UHGV virus genome: UHGV-0040703
Origin: a virus
Direction: 5' to 3' (one strand)
Length of the DNA stretch: 12,371 bases
Shown piece after piece: positions 1 through 12,371 of this stretch (its first letter is position 1; the number at the start of each line of letters is the position of its first letter). A model generated the notes under the pieces. That model worked only from the letters and a program-made list of their open reading frames with translations. It was not told the origin of the DNA and ran no database searches. A program made the position numbers and the translations under genes.

Positions 1-57
1 AAAACACAACCCGCTACGGGGGAGACTTACCCGAAATCTGATTTATTCAACAAAGCC
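1..57. mobile_element. End (terminal inverted repeat plus adjacent interior) of an IS903-family insertion sequence; the element body lies left of the window
   Basis: Reverse complement of 40..57 is GGCTTTGTTGAATAAATC, the 18-bp terminal IR of IS903 as recalled from Tn903-derived vectors. Sequence beyond the IR differs from the Tn903 IRL end, so this is the other end or a close relative. The IR abuts an interrupted hsdS frame at 58. Confidence 0.6.
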
Positions 58-124
58 CCCCCAATGGCAACCACTCAACCTCAACCCCATCCAGCAATTT
101 TTCCAGATAACTCATCTCGCTCAT
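58..124 (-). pseudogene. hsdS: 5' remnant of a type I specificity subunit gene (hsdS), 22 codons, truncated by the IS end
   Basis: Minus-strand ATG at 124..122 overlaps the hsdM stop (ATGA) and encodes [22 protein letters not shown], which matches the recalled EcoR124-type HsdS N-terminus. The frame runs straight into the IS IR, then stops after 3 codons. Confidence 0.55.
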
Positions 125-1683
125 TTCTGCACCTCGCAGCCTTCAATTTCAGCCACAATCGCATCAATATCTTTGCGCAACTGGTCGATTTTGCTGACCG
201 TGGTTTTCAGTTCTGCATTCAACTCAGCGATATCGATAATTTCGCGAGTATCTTTCGCTTCCACATAGCTGCTCACTGACAGGTTATAGTCATTAGCGAC
301 AACGGTCTCAAACGCGACAGATTTCGCCAGATGAGCAACATCTTCCTTGCTGGCAAATACCTGCATAATCTGTTCGATATGGGCATCGGTCAGGATATTG
401 TTGTTAGTCTCTTTTTTGAATAGCTCGCTGGCGTCAATAAACTGAACGTTGGTATCGGTTTTATGTTTAGACAGCACCAGAATGTTTACGGCAATGGTGG
501 TGCCAAAGAACAGGTTCGGAGCCAGTGAAATCACGGTTTCGACATAGTTATTATCGACCAGATACTGACGGATTTTCTGCTCCGCGCCGCCACGGTAAAA
601 AATACCCGGGAAGCAGACAATCGCAGCACGACCTTTGGCCGAAAGATAGTTCAGCGCATGTAATACAAACGCAAAGTCAGCTTTGGATTTGGGGGCCAGA
701 ACGCCAGCCGGGGCAAAACGTTCATCGTTAATCAGCGTCGGGTCATCGCTGCCAATCCATTTCACCGAATACGGCGGGTTAGAAACGATGGCATCAAACG
801 GTTTTTCATCTCTGAAGTGCGGTTCAGTCAGCGTATTGCCCAGCTTGATATCAAACTTGTCGTAGTTGATGTTGTGCAAAAACATGTTCATACGCGCCAG
901 GTTATAGGTCGTATGGTTGATTTCCTGACCAAAAAAACCTTCTTCGATGATATGGTCATCAAACTGTTTTTTAGCCTGCAACAACAGCGAACCGGAGCCT
1001 GCTGCCGGGTCGTAGATTTTGTTAACGTGGGTCTGCCCGTGCATAGCCAGTTGTGCAATCAGCTTAGAGACGTGCTGCGGTGTAAAGAACTCGCCGCCTG
1101 ACTTACCGGCATTTGCCGCATAGTTAGAGATCAGGAACTCATAGGCATCACCGAACAGGTCAATCTGATGTTCGTTGAAGTCACCAAGTTTTAACCCTTC
1201 AACCCCTTTCAGAACCGCAGCCAGGCGGGCATTTTTATCTTTAACGGTGTTACCCAGGCGGTTACTGGTGGTATCGAAATCAGCAAACAAACCTTTGATG
1301 TCAGCTTCTGAAGGATAACCGTAAGCAGAACTTTCGATAGCAACGAAGATGCTGTTTAAATCTGCATTCAGTCTGTCATTGGTATTTGCTTTCGCAGCCA
1401 CGTTGCAGAAAAGCTGACTTGGGTAGATGAAGTAGCCTTTGGTTTTGATGGCATCGTCTTTAATGTCATCAGTAATTACGCTGTCATCCAGTTTCGCATA
1501 ACAGATACTGTCATCACCGGCTTCAATATAACTGGAAAAATTTTCGCTGATAAAACGGTAGAAAAGTGCGCCCAGAACGTATTGCTTAAAATCCCATCCA
1601 TCGACCGAACCCCTGACATCGTTAGCAATTTGCCAGATTTGACGATGAAGCTCTGCACGTTGTTGAATACTTGTCATTTTCAT
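121..1683 (-). CDS. hsdM: Type I restriction-modification DNA methyltransferase subunit HsdM (N6-adenine), EcoR124-like type IC family
   Basis: 520-aa ORF with AdoMet-binding motif [10 protein letters not shown] and catalytic NPPY (in SNPPYSVKW). N-terminus [25 protein letters not shown] matches the recalled R124-family HsdM. Its stop overlaps the hsdS start. Confidence 0.9.
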
Positions 1684-1822: not shown

Positions 1823-1853
1823 TATAATTGTGTACACATAACGAGTACACGAG
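1823..1853 (+). promoter_or_regulatory. phd/doc promoter -10 and operator palindromes
   Basis: TATAAT at 1823..1828, immediately followed by the perfect 10-bp palindrome TGTGTACACA (1829..1838) and a second GTACAC site (1845..1850), just upstream of the phd start. Consistent with Phd/Doc autoregulation at palindromic operators. Confidence 0.55.
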
Positions 1854-1859
1854 GTGTTT

Positions 1860-5537: not shown

Positions 5538-7021
5538 TGGCCAGAAGTTGCGTAACGGATCCACGTTGGCGCGAGTTGGTGGCGCTATATCGTTATGACT
5601 GGATTGCGGCCGCTGATGTTTTGTTCGGCAAAACACCTACCTGGCAGCAGGATCTGATTATTGAGTCTGTGCAGGAACAGGGTAGCAAGACATCTGTTTC
5701 GTCTGGTCACGGTACCGGGAAATCAGACATGACTTCTATCATGATCATGTTGTTCATAATCATGTATCCCGGTGCCCGTGCCATTATCGTTGCGAACAAA
5801 ATTCAGCAGGTAATGACCGGTATATTCAAGTACATCAAGATAAACTGGGCTACGGCCACCAGCCGTTTTCCGTGGCTTGCTGATTATTTTGTTCTGACAG
5901 AAACCGCTTTTTATGAAGTTACTGGTAAAGGTGTATGGACTGTAGTACCGAAGGGCTTTCGTCTGGGAAGTGAATAAGCTCTCGCAGGTGAACACGCAGA
6001 TCATCTTCTGTATATTATCGATGAAGCCTCCGGTGTCAGTGATAGAGCTTTCGGTATCATCACCGGTGCTCTTACCGGACAGGATAACCGCATCTTATTG
6101 CTGTCACAGCCTACACGCCCAAGCGGCTATTTCTACGATACTCACCATAAACTGGCCAAGCGTCCTGGTAACCCTGATGGCGTTTATACGGCGATCACGC
6201 TTAACAGTGAGGAATCACCGCTGGTAACGCCAGCATTTATCAAAATGAAGCTGGCGGAGTACGGCGGGCGTGATAACCCTATGTACATGATTAAGGTACG
6301 CGGACTATTCCCTAAATCACAGGATGGCTTCCTTCTTGGACGTGATGAGGTTGAACGTGCGACGCGGCGGAAAGTCAAGATTGCCAAAGGATGGGGCTGG
6401 CTTGCATGTGTGGACGTTGCTGGTGGTACGGGACGGGATAAGTCCGTTATCAATATCATGATGGTGTCCGGCCAGAGAAATAAACGCCGTGTAATCAACT
6501 ATCGAATGCTGGAATACACAGACGTTACAGAAACGCAGCTTGCCGCCAAAATTTTCGCAGAATGTAATCCTGAGCGATTCCCAAATATCACCATAGCGAT
6601 AGACGGCGATGGCCTGGGTAAAGCAACGGCGGATCTGATGTACGAGTATTATGGTATTACCGTACAGCGTATACGCTGGGGTAAAAAGATGCATAGCCGT
6701 GAAGATAAGAGCCTGTACTTTGATAAACGTGCTTATGCCAACGTTCAAGCCGCAGAGGCCGTAAAATCTGGTCGTATGAGACTGGATAAGGGTAATGAAA
6801 CTATTGAGGAAGCGTCGAAAATCCCTGTAGGGATTAACTCCGCGGGTCAATGGAAAGTGATGAGTAAGGAGGATATGAAGAAAAAACTCAACCTGCACTC
6901 ACCAGACCATTGGGATACATATTGTTTCGCTATGCTGGCGGATTATGTTCCTCAGGATGAAGTGCTTAGCGTCGAAGACGAAGCGCAGGTTGATGAAGCT
7001 CTGGCATGGCTTAATGAATGA
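5537..7021 (+). pseudogene. pacB: pacB (terminase large subunit), interrupted by an in-frame TAA at 5975..5977
   Basis: One frame from 5537 to 7021 gives 494 codons, but codon 147 is TAA (..GFRLGSE*). The N-terminal fragment carries Walker A-like SGHGTGKS; the same frame resumes after the stop with [20 protein letters not shown] (Walker B). The ORF track splits it into 5537..5977 and 6098..7021. Confidence 0.75.
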
Positions 7022-7380: not shown

Positions 7381-7602
7381 GTGGCTACTATCCCTACCCC
7401 TGCTCATTCTGAATTTATCTGGCGCTTTTACTCCTGCCAAAAACGTCACTATCACTTCGTTATTGCACCGACAGAAGATGAGGCACGTTCTCAGCTTCCG
7501 GATGCTCCCTGTATTTTCTCTGCCCGCTTTTCTACCGATTCGCGCAATTCTCTCAGTTACTGGTGCCTCCCTATTAACGCTTCTGCTCAGGAGGGACTAT
7601 GA
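7381..7602 (+). CDS. Small protein, 73 codons, translationally coupled to the downstream antirepressor-like gene (icd-like position in an immI-type operon)
   Basis: GTG at 7381 eight nt after AAGGAGG (7366..7372); its stop overlaps the next ATG (ATGA at 7599..7602). An overlapping TTG-initiated frame (7379..7624) is the alternative. Confidence 0.45.
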   Translation: MATIPTPAHSEFIWRFYSCQKRHYHFVIAPTEDEARSQLPDAPCIFSARFSTDSRNSLSYWCLPINASAQEGL

Positions 7603-8711
7603 GAACGTCATTAGTCACCCGTGAAGAGATGATCGAGGCAATTGAACAGCACACTGCCTGTATCAGTACCAGGGATATACCGGGCGTTATTGCCAACTAC
7701 TTCATGATCACCAAACAACTTTACCGGAGAAAGGACAAACACGCGGTTCACCGCATTCTGCTAACCGATATCCGTGAATACCTGCTCGAACAGGGTCATC
7801 TGAATTACGCAACCGTCGCAGCCGAAGCACGCAAGGAGGCACACAGAATGAAAGCAACTAACGTTAAATCAGAAAAAATTTATGCACCTTCAGTTCAGGA
7901 ATCGGAACTGGTGGTTGTTCAGAATCAGCCGGATGAAATTCCCGTTCTGGAATGGCAGGGAGTACGTGTCGTGACAACCGAAACTCTTGCTAGAGGGTAT
8001 GGGGTCGATGAAGCCAATATTCGCAACAATTTGTCTCGCAACCTTGACCGCTTTGAAGAAGGTAAGCATTACTTTCTTCTAACTGGTTTAAAATTAAGAG
8101 AATTTAAGAACAGAGTAACCGGAAGTTACTCTGTTGGTAAGAACGCCAGAAGCCTTACACTCTGGACAGAGCGCGGCGCTGCACGCATGTCTAAGATCGT
8201 GGACACAAATGAAGCATGGGCATTCTTTGAAAAACTGGAAGACAGCTACTTCCGGCAAAAAGAACAGCAACCGGTTGCAATCCCCCAAACATTACCAGAA
8301 GCCCTACGCCTGGCTGCCGAACTGGCTGAACAAAAGCAGCTTCTGGAACAGAAAGCCCACCAGCTAAATCAGCAGCTGGTAGCCGCCGCTCCTAAGGTCG
8401 ATTTTGCCGACCGGGTATCAGTAGCTAAAGGGATCCTGATTGGGAATTTTGCAAAGGTTGTTGGACTTAAGCAAAACGCGCTGTTTGCCTGGTTACGGGA
8501 GAACGGCATCCTGATAGCGTCCGGTGGACGTAAAAATGTGCCGTTCCAGCAGTACATCAACGCGGGGTATTTCACGGTGAAAGAAGTGGTGCTGGATGAT
8601 GAAGATGGCTACCAGATACGGTTGACGCCTCAATTAACGGGTAAAGGCCAGCAGTGGTTGACGCGTAAACTGCTCGATGCTGGCTTGTTAAAACCGGTGG
8701 CGGCTGAATAA
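7599..8711 (+). CDS. ant: Antirepressor-like protein: ORF6N/KilA-N-type domain plus C-terminal KilAC domain, 370 aa, with nested in-frame start at 7848 (287 aa); Ant1/Ant2-type arrangement
   Basis: AGGAGG SD before the ATG at 7599; second strong SD AAGGAGG (7833..7839) before the in-frame ATG at 7848. Middle region VLEWQGVRVVTTETLARGYGVDEANI... resembles the ORF6N/Bro-N fold; C-terminal LPEALRLAAELAEQKQ...FADRVSVAKGILIGNFAKVVGLKQNALFAWLRENGIL...YINAGYFTVKEV resembles the KilAC signature. Confidence 0.65.
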   Translation: MRTSLVTREEMIEAIEQHTACISTRDIPGVIANYFMITKQLYRRKDKHAVHRILLTDIREYLLEQGHLNYATVAAEARKEAHRMKATNVKSEKIYAPSVQESELVVVQNQPDEIPVLEWQGVRVVTTETLARGYGVDEANIRNNLSRNLDRFEEGKHYFLLTGLKLREFKNRVTGSYSVGKNARSLTLWTERGAARMSKIVDTNEAWAFFEKLEDSYFRQKEQQPVAIPQTLPEALRLAAELAEQKQLLEQKAHQLNQQLVAAAPKVDFADRVSVAKGILIGNFAKVVGLKQNALFAWLRENGILIASGGRKNVPFQQYINAGYFTVKEVVLDDEDGYQIRLTPQLTGKGQQWLTRKLLDAGLLKPVAAE

Positions 8712-8743: not shown

Positions 8744-9595
8744 TTATTGCGCGCTTTCGGGGTTGTCGTTTACTGGCTGCCCCTTCTTGGTTTTACGGCT
8801 GCGCGTAACTGATGCGGCTGACTTAACCTTTTTCTCTTCGCGAGTGATGGCAATTTGTTTTTTTACATTTTCAATATCTGCCAGGCGATATATTTTTGCT
8901 TGCGGCCAGCGGTCGCAGATGATCGGTTCTATGGAGTCATAAAGGCTAAATTTTGCTTTTTCGAATTCACCGTTGATGATAATTCCATCACGGAGAGTTT
9001 CATCGCAGATAAACACGCCACACAGTGGCACATGGTAACTAACTGATTTACCATCATTGTAGTTAGGGCTACTGGAAATGTAGTGGACGCGCAGCATTGT
9101 TTCGCTAAAGCCGTGTACGCGCATACGGAATTTTTCATCCTCCGGGTACTGCTTCATTAGCTCTTTTGTTGCTTCCAGGTTCTCTATGTATTTCGCACTG
9201 TGCTCATTGATCCCCGCGCTTTTTTGGATGCGAATATCCTTATCAATCAGATGAATAATGCGGCCAGCGGTCATGTTGACGCTGTTCACAGCCTCTGTCT
9301 GATAAGTTGTAACCTTACGCACACCGCGAAGGATGTTAGGCACTGGATATAAAATAGTCTTTGGGATATTGAGGTCTGGGTACTGTTCCAGTTCCCGCGC
9401 CATTAAAGTCCATTTATCAATTTCAGCCTGAATGCTGTCAGTTTCTTTGAACGGTAGAACGACAACCGGGCGTACAGGACGACCGTCGCTGGCTGTATCA
9501 ACGTGTTGGGCGCGTGCAACAGCTTTTTTTAGAAAGAGATCCCTGAAGCTGACGAACTCCTGGTACAGTTGTTCGCCGTAGACATAATTTATCAT
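8744..9595 (-). CDS. c1: C1 repressor of lysis (primary immunity repressor), 283 aa
   Basis: Translation MINYVYGEQLYQEFVSFRDLFLKKAVARAQHVDTASDGRPVRPVVVLPFKETDSIQAEIDKWTL... matches recalled P1 C1; 283 aa as in P1. Confidence 0.95.
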   Translation of the reverse strand: MINYVYGEQLYQEFVSFRDLFLKKAVARAQHVDTASDGRPVRPVVVLPFKETDSIQAEIDKWTLMARELEQYPDLNIPKTILYPVPNILRGVRKVTTYQTEAVNSVNMTAGRIIHLIDKDIRIQKSAGINEHSAKYIENLEATKELMKQYPEDEKFRMRVHGFSETMLRVHYISSSPNYNDGKSVSYHVPLCGVFICDETLRDGIIINGEFEKAKFSLYDSIEPIICDRWPQAKIYRLADIENVKKQIAITREEKKVKSAASVTRSRKTKKGQPVNDNPESAQ

Positions 9596-9689
9596 TGATC
9601 CTCCTCCAGAATTGACATGGCCAATAACGCCCGGCTGAGAAAACCGGTCATTACTGACCTATATTATAGAGGGATCAAACAAAAATAAT

Positions 9690-9706
9690 AGATTTATTAG
9701 TGCATT
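9690..9706 (-). promoter_or_regulatory. C1 operator-like site between coi and c1
   Basis: AGATTTATTAGTGCATT matches 14 of 17 positions of the reverse-complement consensus AAATTTATTAGAGCAAT. Confidence 0.4.
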
Positions 9707-9915
9707 TATTGTGAGTCTAACTGGTTAGTTGCCATGAGATATTCGATTGTGTCAGTGAGGTCATCCAGGTCGTCTTGGGTGATGCGGTACTCCTGATTGG
9801 ATATCTTTGAGTAGTGTTCAGCAATGGCGCGGGCAGCGTCGGTTTCGGCAGGGTCTACAGATAAAGCGTTAGAGCAATGTCTAACGTCGTCGATGGTTGG
9901 TTGAATGAAAGCCAT
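9706..9915 (-). CDS. coi: Coi, C1 inactivator, 69 aa
   Basis: 69-aa ORF MAFIQPTIDDVRHCSNALSVDPAETDAARAIAEHYSK... immediately upstream of c1 on the same strand, as in P1 immC. Confidence 0.85.
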   Translation of the reverse strand: MAFIQPTIDDVRHCSNALSVDPAETDAARAIAEHYSKISNQEYRITQDDLDDLTDTIEYLMATNQLDSQ

Positions 9916-10153
9916 AATTATGCCTCACTGTATTGACAACACAGAGCCTGAAGCTCTGACCTACTGTTTCACCCATGATCCATGCTGGGGTAATCTAACA
10001 ACATTGCGCTGTGTGTAAGATGAGCAATGCATAGCTGTAATGCCGTTGTATAAGGTTTCCCTGTTTGCTCATTTCCTTCTGAGCCGCTCTACAACGCTGA
10101 AGACACATTAAATAGTGAATCCAAAGTCGTATTACGTAACGGCGGCAAAACTA

Positions 10154-10170
10154 TAATTTATTAGAGCAAT
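10154..10170 (-). promoter_or_regulatory. C1 operator (Op99-type), minus orientation
   Basis: TAATTTATTAGAGCAAT matches 16 of 17 positions of the reverse-complement consensus. Confidence 0.65.
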
Positions 10171-10236
10171 TGTCAAACAACTATGAAAAACAATCCAGTT
10201 TTTGGCTGGTGGAGTGGGATTTTTCTCTCAAAATTT

Positions 10237-10253
10237 ATTGCTCTAATAATTCT
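10237..10253 (+). promoter_or_regulatory. C1 operator (Op99-type), plus orientation
   Basis: ATTGCTCTAATAATTCT matches 15 of 17 consensus positions. Confidence 0.65.
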
Positions 10254-10296
10254 TGATTTTTATGCGCAGCTGGACGTAAACTCCTCTTCGGACCTA

Positions 10297-10330
10297 ATAA
10301 CTTCGTATAGCATACATTATACGAAGTTAT
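10297..10330. other. loxP site for Cre recombination (13-bp inverted arms, 8-bp spacer)
   Basis: Exact ATAACTTCGTATA-GCATACAT-TATACGAAGTTAT. Confidence 0.98.
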
Positions 10331-10349
10331 CTTAAGGGTTATTGAATAT

Positions 10350-10479
10350 GATCAATTTACCTGTAAATCCATACAGTTCAATACCTTAGCAGGTCAAATA
10401 GTGATCATTTGATCAAGGTTGCGCTACGTAAAATCTGTGAAAAGTTGGCGGTGTTAGTCCTACAGATTTCGCGTAGCGC
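10350..10479 (+). promoter_or_regulatory. cre upstream regulatory region: Dam GATC cluster and an 18-bp imperfect inverted repeat
   Basis: GATC at 10350, 10403 and 10411 (TGATCATTTGATCA); inverted repeat GCGCTACGTAAAATCTGT (10421..10438) / ACAGATTTCGCGTAGCGC (10462..10479) with a 23-nt spacer. Dam-sensitive cre promoters have been described for P1. Confidence 0.4.
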
Positions 10480-10511
10480 ACTTAGCACCACCAATCAATC
10501 AGAGGTGAAAA

Positions 10512-10733
10512 ATGGGATATTCAACTGCTAAAGTGTCCACTCATCTTGAGCTTGAGAAAAACCGTGGTTACTGGCGGGCAAAAGGGTTTGATCGTGATAG
10601 TTGCCAACTGTCATTATCGCGCGGTGAAGAGAAAATAGAACGCACGCGCGGTCGCTGGCGTTTCTATGACGAGAACCATAAACAGGTAAAGGCAGAGCCG
10701 ATCCTGTACACTTTACTTAAAACCATCATCTGA
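10512..10733 (+). CDS. Hypothetical small basic protein (73 aa) immediately upstream of cre
   Basis: ATG at 10512 four nt after GAGGTG; its stop is 7 nt before the cre ATG. No recognised family; I do not recall it as an annotated P1 gene. Confidence 0.3.
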   Translation: MGYSTAKVSTHLELEKNRGYWRAKGFDRDSCQLSLSRGEEKIERTRGRWRFYDENHKQVKAEPILYTLLKTII

Positions 10734-10740
10734 GTGTTAA

Positions 10741-11772
10741 ATGTCCAATTTACTGACCGTACACCAAAATTTGCCTGCATTACCGGTCGATGCAACGAGT
10801 GATGAGGTTCGCAAGAACCTGATGGACATGTTCAGGGATCGCCAGGCGTTTTCTGAGCATACCTGGAAAATGCTTCTGTCCGTTTGCCGGTCGTGGGCGG
10901 CATGGTGCAAGTTGAATAACCGGAAGTGGTTTCCCGCAGAACCTGAAGATGTTCGCGATTATCTTCTATATCTTCAGGCGCGCGGTCTGGCAGTGAAAAC
11001 TATCCAGCAACATTTGGGCCAGCTAAATATGCTTCATCGTCGGTCCGGGCTGCCACGACCAAGTGACAGCAATGCTGTTTCACTGGTCATGCGACGGATC
11101 CGAAAAGAAAACGTTGATGCCGGTGAGCGTGCAAAACAGGCGCTGGCGTTCGAACGCACTGATTTCGACCAGGTTCGTTCACTCATGGAAAATAGCGATC
11201 GCTGCCAGGATATACGTAATCTGGCATTTCTGGGGATTGCTTATAACACCCTGTTACGTATAGCCGAAATTGCCAGGATCAGAGTTAAAGATATCTCACG
11301 TACTGACGGTGGGAGAATGTTAATCCATATTGGCAGAACGAAAACGCTGGTTAGCACCGCTGGTGTAGAGAAGGCACTTAGTCTGGGGGTAACTAAACTG
11401 GTTGAGCGATGGATTTCTGTCTCTGGTGTGGCTGATGATCCGAATAACTACTTGTTTTGCCGTGTCAGAAAAAATGGTGTTGCCGCGCCATCTGCCACCA
11501 GCCAGCTATCAACTCGCGCCCTGGAAGGGATTTTTGAAGCAACTCACCGATTGATTTACGGGGCTAAGGATGACTCTGGCCAGAGGTACCTGGCCTGGTC
11601 TGGACACAGTGCCCGTGTCGGAGCCGCGCGAGATATGGCCCGCGCCGGAGTTTCAATACCGGAGATCATGCAAGCTGGTGGCTGGACCAACGTAAATATT
11701 GTCATGAACTATATCCGTAACCTGGATAGTGAAACAGGGGCAATGGTGCGCCTGCTGGAAGATGGCGATTAG
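10741..11772 (+). CDS. cre: Cre tyrosine site-specific recombinase, 343 aa
   Basis: Translation MSNLLTVHQNLPALPVDATSDEVRKNLMDMFRDRQAFSEHTWKMLLSVCRSWAAWCKLNNRKWFPAEPEDVRDYLLYLQARGLAVKTIQQHLGQLNMLHRRSGLPRPSDSNAVSLVMRRIRKENVDAGERAKQALAFERTDFDQVRSLMENSDRCQDIRNLAFLGIAYNTLLRIAEIARIRVKDISRTDGGRMLIHIGRTKTLVSTAGVEKALSLGVTKLVERWISVSGVADDPNNYLFCRVRKNGVAAPSATSQLSTRALEGIFEATHRLIYGAKDDSGQRYLAWSGHSARVGAARDMARAGVSIPEIMQAGGWTNVNIVMNYIRNLDSETGAMVRLLEDGD is P1 Cre. Confidence 0.98.
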   Translation: MSNLLTVHQNLPALPVDATSDEVRKNLMDMFRDRQAFSEHTWKMLLSVCRSWAAWCKLNNRKWFPAEPEDVRDYLLYLQARGLAVKTIQQHLGQLNMLHRRSGLPRPSDSNAVSLVMRRIRKENVDAGERAKQALAFERTDFDQVRSLMENSDRCQDIRNLAFLGIAYNTLLRIAEIARIRVKDISRTDGGRMLIHIGRTKTLVSTAGVEKALSLGVTKLVERWISVSGVADDPNNYLFCRVRKNGVAAPSATSQLSTRALEGIFEATHRLIYGAKDDSGQRYLAWSGHSARVGAARDMARAGVSIPEIMQAGGWTNVNIVMNYIRNLDSETGAMVRLLEDGD

Positions 11773-11822
11773 CCATTAACGCGTAAATGATTGTTCTAAT
11801 TCTTTGATATTTATGGTGACAT

Positions 11823-12134
11823 ATGAGAAAGGATTTCAACATCGACGGAAAATATGTAGTGCTGTCTGTAAGCACTAATATTCAGTCGCCAGCCGTCATT
11901 GTCACTGTAAAGCTGAGCGATAGAATGCCTGATATTGACTCAATATCCGTTGCGTTCCCTGTCAAAAGTATGCGTGGTGCTGAACATTTCGTGATGAATG
12001 CCACCGAGGAAGAAGCACGGCGCGGTTTTGCTAAAGTAGTGTCTGACTTTGGCGAACTCTTGGATAAGGTTAACAATGTCCTTTCAATCAGTTCAGCAAG
12101 GTCCAAAGCGTTAACAGCTTCCATGATGAAATAA
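11823..12134 (+). CDS. cra: Cre-associated small protein (cra-like), 103 aa
   Basis: ORF directly downstream of cre with GGTGA before the ATG; assigned by synteny with P1 (cre then cra). Confidence 0.55.
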   Translation: MRKDFNIDGKYVVLSVSTNIQSPAVIVTVKLSDRMPDIDSISVAFPVKSMRGAEHFVMNATEEEARRGFAKVVSDFGELLDKVNNVLSISSARSKALTASMMK

Positions 12135-12158
12135 AAAAAGCCTGGCAAGGAACCAGGC
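12133..12158 (-). terminator. Rho-independent terminator oriented for minus-strand transcripts
   Basis: Stem GCCTGG/CCAGGC around loop CAAGGAA, preceded on the plus strand by A7, which is a U7 tract after the hairpin on the minus strand. Confidence 0.55.
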
Positions 12159-12261
12159 TGCACAAAAGAGCGGGTTTGTGTTCCGCATCCAATCAATCAG
12201 AAAGGAGTATAGCACATAGATACTAAAGTGAAAAAATGTGACTGAAGATAAACAATATAAC

Positions 12262-12285
12262 ATTGCTCTAATTGATTGTTATAAT
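12262..12285 (+). promoter_or_regulatory. C1 operator-like site with adjacent -10 element (Op2-type position after cre/cra)
   Basis: ATTGCTCTAATTGATTG (12262..12278) matches 14 of 17 consensus positions; TATAAT at 12280..12285. Confidence 0.5.
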
Positions 12286-12316
12286 TGGGCCGTGGCGTTA
12301 GTCAACTACGAAGACG

Positions 12317-12371
12317 GGTAGTGACTCCAACTTACTGATAGTGTTTTATGTTCAGATAATGCCCGATGACC
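12317..12371. mobile_element. IS1 terminal inverted repeat and adjacent interior (IRR-type end); element continues beyond the window
   Basis: GGTAGTGACTCCAACTTACTGATAGTGTTTTATGTTCAGATAATGCCCGATGAC matches the recalled IS1 end GGTAATGACTCCAACTTATTGATAGTGTTTTATGTTCAGATAATGCCCGATGAC with 2 mismatches. Confidence 0.8.

Follow-up and report, generated by a model that had tools for sequence, protein, structure and literature searches.

An IS1 end behind the predicted ref promoter of a P1-like phage-plasmid and the conserved leftward terminator beside it

The right-hand end of the window (the whole stretch of viral DNA analyzed here, 12,371 nt) brings a promoter overlapped by a C1 operator face to face with the terminus of an IS1 element. 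A short distance to the left lies a predicted terminator for leftward transcripts, with no leftward gene in view that it could serve. This arrangement, which was pointed out in a first-pass annotation made from the sequence alone, raises two questions: how did IS1 come to lie behind this promoter, and what would the terminator terminate?

The answer that we consider probable is that IS1 inserted behind the ref promoter P2ref, in a slot that repeatedly receives mobile DNA and is flanked by an ancestral boundary terminator, and that the window would end within IS1 because the assembly broke in this repeat. The properties of C1 binding, P2ref activity, termination efficiency and IS1 polarity used in this explanation are taken from the literature on P1 and IS1.

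Identity of the window and of its right-hand junction

The window belongs to a P1-like (Punavirus/IncY) phage-plasmid, of which it represents the immC–lox–cra–cre–c8 end. The gene order c1–coi–(lox)–cra–cre–c8 agrees with the P1 annotation, and the backbone is P1-like: in the whole-window comparison, backbone matches to P1-like plasmids began at positions ~53–71, and the region from ~58/71 to 12316 was 97–98% identical to these replicons. The segment 11700..12316 was 94.7% identical to P1 1395..2016 in the alignment, and 99.8% identical to IncY plasmids, including NZ_CP032890 and ~25 others among the matches listed. The coordinates of the features identified are summarized in Table 1.

Table 1. 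Features of the window, and breaks of the backbone in related loci (the latter in P1 coordinates)
Feature	Position	Strand	Basis or remark
IS903, terminal 57 b	1..57	-	100% identical to annotated IS903 of P7 and other phages
c1, C1 repressor gene	8744..9595	-	282/283 identical to a 283-aa product labelled PF27008 Phage_P7_repressor_C1
coi	9706..9915	-	ORF and P1 annotation
cra	10512..10733	+	P1 annotation: 73-aa ORF upstream of cre
cre recombinase	10741..11772	+	PF00589, E = 8.9e-33; aligned to P1 cre
c8, 103 aa, "establishment of lysogeny, putative"	11823..12134	+	corresponds to P1 1518..1829, annotated c8
Low-diversity block (c8 3′-end, terminator and ~55 bp beyond)	12090..12215		pairwise diversity
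Intrinsic terminator (predicted) for leftward transcripts	12129..12159	-	stem 12139..12159, U-tract 12138..12129
Promoter-like site TTTTCA-17-TGcTATACT (extended −10)	12206..12234	-	promoter scan; P1 1930..1902
P2ref promoter (predicted)	12257..12285	+	−35 12257..12262, −10 TATAAT 12280..12285, TG before −10
Oref, monovalent C1 operator (predicted)	12262..12278	+	17-mer ATTGCTCTAATTGATTG identical to annotated Oref, P1 AF234172 1962..1978
Predicted 9-bp IS1 target site ACGAAGACG	12308..12316		from the known IS1 duplication
IS1 (IS1X2-type), IRR end	12317..12371	-	55/55 identity to IS1 copies in E. coli
insB, last 13 codons	12332..12371	-	CDS orientation and stop from an annotated IS1X2 copy (L099)
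Backbone break	P1 1918		Tn21-type IR
Backbone break	P1 2008		Tn1721-type IR
Backbone break	P1 2026		3.3-kb cargo island; in L008 also an IS21-family element inside the island
Backbone break	P1 ~2027		Tn5393-type IR
Backbone break	P1 2069		ref replaced by another gene
Breaks inside ref	P1 2199, 2506, 2615/6		Tn3-family ends, including Tn3 of P7

The c1 gene of the window is an intact 283-aa ORF located in cis with the operator described below, and its counterpart in NZ_CP032890 is annotated as "phage repressor protein C1". The exact C1 protein was present in 15200 blocks of the assembly collection, and the exact c8 protein in 5798. It was the c8 gene, ending at 12134, that the first-pass annotation had named cra; according to the P1 annotation, cra is the ORF upstream of cre.

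The window begins with 57 b of IS903 and closes with 55 b of IS1. Since these IS ends are of approximately k-mer length on both sides, the window looks like a short-read contig collapsed in repeats and stopping in them at both ends. Two marks of decay were also observed in the window: hsdM is flanked by the IS903 end (1..57), and pacB contains a nonsense codon.

The site facing IS1 is homologous to the annotated P2ref of P1 (1957..1985), and we predict on this basis that it is the ref promoter of this family, overlapped by the C1 operator Oref. The promoter scan identified ATAACA-17-TATAAT with a TG before the −10 hexamer (score 10/12). Six matches to the C1 operator consensus were found in the window, compared with 0.07 expected, and the site at 12262..12278 fits the consensus ATTGCTCTAATAAATTT and overlaps the predicted sigma-70 promoter. 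The proposal that a C1 operator with a TATAAT points rightward into the IS1 inverted repeat at 12317 was borne out by the homology to Oref and P2ref and by the IS1 end 31 bp downstream. The corresponding region of P1 was reportedly characterized by Windle, Laufer and Hays in 1988 and annotated by Lobocka et al. in 2004.

The window and P1 share an operator identical over 17 bp, a TATAAT that begins 1 bp after it, a location ~125 bp downstream of c8, and the presence of c1 in cis. The −35 region and the upstream spacer, in contrast, diverge: in the lineage of the window the hexamer is ATAACA and 4 bp are missing, and the window shows AGATAAA in place of the H-NS core CGATAAA that was reported for P1. 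The window also carries a private A-to-G change at position 12289. A further difference is found downstream: in P1 the promoter reads into the ref leader with P1ref, an attenuator hairpin and ref, whereas in the window it reads into IS1.

A second C1 operator in the conserved block, suggested by the inverted repeat 12190..12201 / 12267..12278, was considered and rejected, since 12190..12201 only fits the right half of the operator, which is poorly conserved (11/17 overall).

The 55 terminal bases of the window contain the inverted repeat of IS1, GGT(A/G)(A/G)TG..., followed by the 3′-end of insB. IS1 copies in many E. coli genomes share both over 55/55 positions, and for 583 records the best match to this 55-mer was at least 99% identical. 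The backbone alignments of all relatives end at 12316, and GGTAGTGACTCCAAC starts at 12317. The annotation of one IS1X2 copy places the transposase CDS on the opposite strand, with its stop 15 b from the same terminus; the end at 12317 is therefore the IRR (insB) end of the element, and insAB′ reads leftward, toward c8 and cre.

The junction corresponds to P1 2016/2017. It is located 31 bp downstream of the −10 hexamer of P2ref, directly before the predicted −35 hexamer of P1ref (P1 2017..2022) and ~60 bp before the start of ref (P1 2077). The proposal of the first-pass annotation would have been contradicted by canonical P1 carrying IS1 at exactly this junction, with ref downstream of it. The resident IS1 of P1, however, is annotated at 22,626..23,393 (22.6–23.4 kb), between isaA and isaB, a location also given in Table 1 of PMC6906374, whereas the IS1 of the window lies between P2ref and the predicted P1ref −35.

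The P2ref–IS1 junction had no match in 50,697 phage records, 72,556 plasmids and 5,426 complete E. coli genomes, and scans of contigs from viruses, genomes and metagenomes with exact and degenerate patterns did not reveal it either. Among the 20 listed loci with an exact c8 or C1 protein, none had IS1 adjoining c8.

The c8–ref interval as a landing site for mobile DNA

We compared the window with 98 related loci, 80 of them taken from IMG/VR and the others obtained through look-ups of phages, plasmids and assemblies. In these loci (Table 1), Tn3-family transposons, IS elements and cargo have repeatedly entered the interval between c8 and ref. Since this slot has been hit repeatedly in this way, the IS1 of the window represents a private, yet ordinary insertion.

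The location agrees with the hot spots for transposons and accessory genes described for P1-like elements (Pfeifer et al. 2022, PMC9600943; Venturini et al. 2019, PMC6906374; ref::Tn3 of P7), which share with the window a mobile element in the c8–ref–mat region. In other members of the family, Tn3, Tn21, Tn1721 or Tn5393-type ends, IS21 or the 3.3-kb cargo are found within tens of bp of the window site. An IS1 at precisely P1 2016/2017, by contrast, was found in no other searched record. In the legend of Fig. 2 of PMC9600943, a "Ref family" gene is listed among the neighbours of, or proximal to, elements carrying ARGs in P1-like phage-plasmids.

Several contents of the slot could be distinguished. 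In one locus (L022), whose breakpoint and flanking sequence are shared by 15 of the 80 IMG/VR loci, the place of ref is taken by a leftward 370-aa Ant/KilAC gene, which ends ~215 nt to the right of the terminator. In the lineage closest to the window among those examined (99.8% identity up to the junction), the sequence after P1 2026 is a 3.3-kb island located between P2ref and ref. The minus strand of this island carries a resolvase remnant as well as SnoaL, AraC/DJ-1 and MBL genes, and the ref gene beyond it is 5′-truncated (P1 2306..2700). Two further loci (L061 and L072) have a related type of intergenic region with an intact ref.

These data bear on the fate of ref, a C1-repressed gene of the lytic cycle that encodes a nuclease in P1 (PMC4713147). 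It had been proposed that the gene driven by the promoter was displaced, or that the promoter now transcribes into IS1. The promoter is indeed that of ref in P1 and does point into IS1. IS1 may have displaced ref, but this cannot be asserted, since in the closest relatives examined P2ref is already separated from a truncated ref by cargo; judging from these sequences, ref may have been uncoupled from P2ref before IS1 arrived.

If the promoter behaves as in P1, it would be silent with C1 bound. Upon inactivation of C1, transcription from P2ref would cover a leader of ~25 nt before passing through IRR into IS1, in the antisense direction relative to insB. Whichever way it is oriented, an IS1 insertion is polar, and the DNA beyond the element would thus probably lose its control by Oref. 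IS1 transposition is raised by transcription entering from outside in the sense direction (PMC12428005).

The insertion is also of some small interest for the genes involved: IS1 would sit between ref and the promoter by which C1 controls it in P1, and prophage induction would send antisense transcription into insB. Ref itself reportedly stimulates the excision of IS1 (Lu, Lu and Gottesman, 1989).

IS1 generates 9-bp target duplications. A simple insertion would therefore have left a second copy of ACGAAGACG after the other end of the element, and the predicted right junction would read from the IRL end AGTAAGTTGGCAGCATCACC through ACGAAGACG to T(G/T)GCCATTAC, with the backbone continuing behind it. 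For a recipient of the cargo lineage, the predicted order is GGCAGCATCACC-ACGAAGACG-TGGCCATTACC, and for one of the ref lineage ACGAAGACG would be followed by TTGCCATTAC. A search for such a junction (IS1 IRL, a duplication of 8–10 bp, and T) yielded 23 metagenome matches, all of them unrelated GC-rich environmental sequences.

A different origin of the IS1 end, which we consider possible but rather unlikely, is an IS1-mediated rearrangement (an adjacent deletion of ref or cargo, an inversion, or a cointegrate) of which IS1 would mark the edge; the DNA beyond it would then be unrelated to the c8–ref slot, and the 9-bp duplication would be missing. Such an event would be in keeping with the heavy remodelling of the phage-plasmid (the IS903 end next to hsdM and the nonsense codon in pacB), with the fact that many relatives are large cointegrates of 120–370 kb with several IS1 copies, and with the mobile elements lacking flanking direct repeats that were reported in P1-like plasmids (PMC6906374). 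The predicted right junction (IS1 IRL, ACGAAGACG and T) was not found in the contig scans either, but this result carries no information, since the left junction was also not found in the collections searched. The content of the window does not separate a rearrangement from a simple insertion.

Read as a simple insertion, the junction represents an ordinary structural variant at a contig end, a new allele in which IS1 occupies a hot spot already described for a known element, and it matters little by itself. It adds one more case of the c8–ref slot of P1-like phage-plasmids gathering mobile DNA.

The leftward terminator and the conserved block around it

The minus strand at the end of c8 shows the arrangement expected of an intrinsic terminator, that is a G+C-rich stem-loop with a U-tract directly behind it. 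On this strand 8 base pairs form the stem, one of them G-U (−13.5 kcal/mol), and the U-tract that comes next reads UUUUUUAUUU and overlaps the stop codon of c8; behind the plus-strand stem lies GCACAAAAG, which contains no U-tract. This terminator is also predicted in P1, at 1855..1835 (minus strand). The terminator pattern scan gave three sites, with 1.5 expected, and is thus not above chance by itself; the hairpin and the A-run, however, were present in all 98 loci, including those of P1, P7, SJ46 and RCS47.

The terminator perceived by the first-pass annotation is thus real as a stem with a U-tract, although its limits (12133..12158) are better given as in Table 1. The suggestion that it has no visible gene to terminate holds for the window and for P1, but not for the family, in some lineages of which leftward Ant/KilAC or cargo genes occupy the slot. 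Any link between the terminator and the IS1 event has to be abandoned: the structure is ancestral and family-wide, and it predates the insertion. Leftward transcripts leaving IS1 would nevertheless meet it, as had been proposed, given the leftward orientation of insAB′ in the comparison with the IS1X2 CDS.

Among the sequence variants, the A-run comprises 5–9 A, and every variant keeps at least 5 A abutting the stem. The stem of P1 is of nearly equal stability on both strands (−15.0 vs −15.6 kcal/mol). Its only change, a plus-strand G-to-A in the lineage of the window, produces a C-A mismatch and a stability of −10.9 kcal/mol in the plus-strand stem, while the minus strand retains a G-U pair; this fits use of the minus strand.

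The hairpin lies within a block of ~125 bp which shows the lowest diversity in the ~900 bp analyzed (pairwise diversity 0.007–0.028, computed on the 79 unique sequences from the 98 loci). The values were 0.009 for the hairpin and 0.018 for 12135..12215, compared with 0.158 and 0.018 for the third and second codon positions of c8, respectively, 0.090 for the third positions of cre, and 0.172 for the spacer between the block and Oref. The block is therefore about as conserved as second codon positions, which the current P1 annotation does not explain.

In a blastn search of plasmids with settings for distant matches, the block was found only in P1-like plasmids, next to c8 (697 records, all but one with at least 90% identity), and no distant homologues were detected outside this group. 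The six breakpoints found between c8 and ref, which are independent of one another, all lie outside the block (P ~0.08), and in one locus (L018) a deletion of most of c8 halts at its left edge. The strong conservation around the leftward terminator, seen across 79 unique variants and 697 plasmid records, is part of what may be of interest to specialists.

Two small ORFs in this region were examined and rejected as genes. The first, a 50-aa minus-strand ORF (12263..12111) running through the hairpin, starts in the variable spacer with its indels (4 bp relative to P1), and the polymorphism of the A-run shifts its frame. The second is a plus-strand ORF behind an AAGGAG motif (~12200), for which there is no start codon at a usable distance.

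We favour the reading, based on sequence comparison, that the hairpin acts as a boundary terminator. It is the first minus-strand terminator predicted by the pattern scan downstream of the leftward genes of the slot, and was read as a boundary terminator for this reason. Such a terminator would stop leftward transcripts coming out of the variable slot, and would thereby protect c8–cre–lox–immC against antisense transcripts. The sources of these transcripts would be the Ant-like or cargo genes in other lineages, and read-through from insAB′ in the window.

Several observations do not sit easily with this role. P1 and most of its relatives, in which ref and mat are on the plus strand, have no annotated leftward gene. 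A boundary function alone does not obviously explain conservation at the level of second codon positions over ~125 bp, and the block, reaching ~40 bp into c8 and ~55 bp past the hairpin, is more extended than a terminator needs.

A candidate small RNA and other readings of the hairpin

The excess of conservation raises the tentative and, in our view, doubtful possibility that the terminator belongs to an unannotated minus-strand RNA of P1-like elements, ~65–70 nt in length (from ~12199 to 12130). A promoter-like site with an extended −10 (TGcTATACT; hexamer at 12211..12206 in the window and 1907..1902 in P1) is predicted on the minus strand ~47 nt upstream of the terminator, in both the window and P1. 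The candidate RNA would start ~7 nt after this −10 and end at the U-tract. It would begin with an unpaired 5′ segment (UGAUUGAUUGGAUG), continue with a small internal hairpin, and finish with the terminator hairpin and its U-tail, an arrangement resembling an sRNA of the Hfq type.

The −10 hexamer is invariant among the sequence variants, with the TG missing in only two loci (L088 and L097), but the −35 varies (TTTTCA, TTTTCT, TTTTTA), and the number of promoter-like matches in the region (5, vs 2.3 ± 1.7 in shuffled sequences) is not significant. The minus strand of 12125..12205 folds with −22.6 kcal/mol (z = −2.8), and 1 of 200 shuffled sequences was as stable. The candidate lies inside the block of lowest diversity (0.018 vs 0.158 at the third codon positions of c8), in which no breakpoint out of six was found, although P is only ~0.08, and at whose left edge the L018 deletion of c8 stops. 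The sole change in the stem, which pairs on the minus strand only, also points to a transcript of this strand.

Other features of the alignment are less favourable to an RNA. Compensatory covariation is lacking, the internal hairpin carries two changes, each in a single locus, that are opposed to each other (that of L039 favours the plus strand, that of L045 the minus strand), and the conservation continues ~40 bp past the predicted 3′-end of the RNA into c8. A search of 9500..12371 (both strands) against Rfam 15 gave no match at E <= 1, the P1 annotation shows no RNA at this location, none was found in the literature searched, and the candidate has no known target.

In its architecture, and in this respect only, the candidate resembles the C4 antisense RNA of P1 immI, which is likewise short, phage-encoded and ended by a Rho-independent terminator. 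The two differ in that they have no sequence or Rfam relationship, that the candidate would be intergenic whereas C4 is antisense, and that the candidate is a predicted transcript. If it proved to be genuine, it would enlarge the set of regulatory RNAs of a phage that is among the best studied. The existence of such an RNA would be compatible with the role of a boundary terminator, and we favour the latter as the reading that would suffice for the window.

We regard it as improbable that the hairpin serves the plus strand, as a 3′ stabilizer or processing site of the cre–c8 mRNA, with the U-tract of the minus strand as a by-product of the A-rich c8 stop. The equal stability of the P1 stem on both strands (−15.0 vs −15.6 kcal/mol), the variable length of the A-run (5–9 A) and the extension of the conservation into the 3′-end of c8 would agree with this function. 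However, the plus-strand stem has lost a pair in the lineage of the window (C-A; −10.9 vs −13.5 kcal/mol), no U-tract follows on this strand, and at least 5 A abut the stem in every variant.

An assembly artefact, i.e. a chimeric join of the end of a P1-like contig to an IS1 k-mer, is hardly credible: a sequence that begins 57 b into IS903 and ends 55 b into IS1 is typical of de Bruijn contig ends, but such ends come from real reads spanning a unique/repeat junction, and the break coincides precisely with the first base of the inverted repeat of IS1, GGTAGTGAC, as at a true end of transposition.

Conserved block at the 3′ end of c8

Among 79 unique P1-like sequences, the diversity minimum of the cre–c8–Oref region lies in a block at positions 12090..12215 (approx. 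1786..1911 in P1, AF234172), in which diversity is 0.007-0.028, in contrast to 0.158 at the third codon positions of c8. The coding part of this block comprises only the last approx. 15 codons of c8, the rest being non-coding, and its low diversity is beyond what the current annotation accounts for.

A 12-nt inverted repeat (11/12 complementary) was also observed, with one arm within the block (12190..12201) and the other (12267..12278) within the C1 operator Oref. The match of the block arm to the operator is confined to the right half, which is weakly conserved, and the repeat may have arisen by chance.

Surroundings of the ref promoters

In P1, an H-NS core site, CGATAAA, has been reported upstream of ref (PMC4713147). 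The lineage of the window differs from P1 in having AGATAAA in its place (12247..12253), as well as a spacer between this motif and Oref that is shorter by 4 bp. Position 12289 carries a private A-to-G substitution (TATAATTGGG, vs TATAATTGAG in the compared relatives with the same intergenic type), placed 4 bp past the −10 hexamer of the promoter P2ref and close to the expected transcription start.

At 2046..2063 in P1, between P2ref/P1ref and the start of ref, GGCGGCCATTAGGCCGCC and a subsequent T8 run form a strong terminator on the plus strand, presumably the attenuator that Windle et al. 1988 described. This terminator is absent from the window, because its position is beyond the IS1 junction.

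Elements inserted at ref

Three distinct Tn3-family ends (Tn3, Tn1721-like and Tn21-like), present in P7 (L013), SJ46 (L014/L057) and the related locus L042, all join the backbone at one position, P1 2615/2616, at the 3′ end of ref. The position looks like a sharp target hot spot for the Tn3 family. One lineage has, in place of ref, an oppositely oriented antirepressor gene of the Ant/KilAC type, equal in size and domain type to the ant-like gene of the window.

Window boundaries and the pacB gene

Features of the window and of locus L022
Feature	Coordinates	Strand	Remarks
IS903 end, 57 b	1..57		100% identity to IS903 of P7
hsdM	121..1683	minus	neighbour of the IS903 end
pacB, large terminase subunit, 494 aa	5537..7021		premature TAA at 5975..5977
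ant-like gene	7599..8711		
Ant/KilAC-type antirepressor gene, 370 aa	L022 2554..3666	minus	also in 14 further IMG/VR loci

The window is bordered by the IS903 end and, at the opposite side, by 55 b of IS1, and it therefore looks like a complete short-read contig with a repeat at each boundary.

The in-frame TAA of pacB is codon 147, which is GAA (Glu) in the relative L103; this codon aside, PacB matches that of L103 without difference. The stop codon may render the element packaging-defective, i.e. a phage-plasmid on its way to becoming a plasmid by decay.
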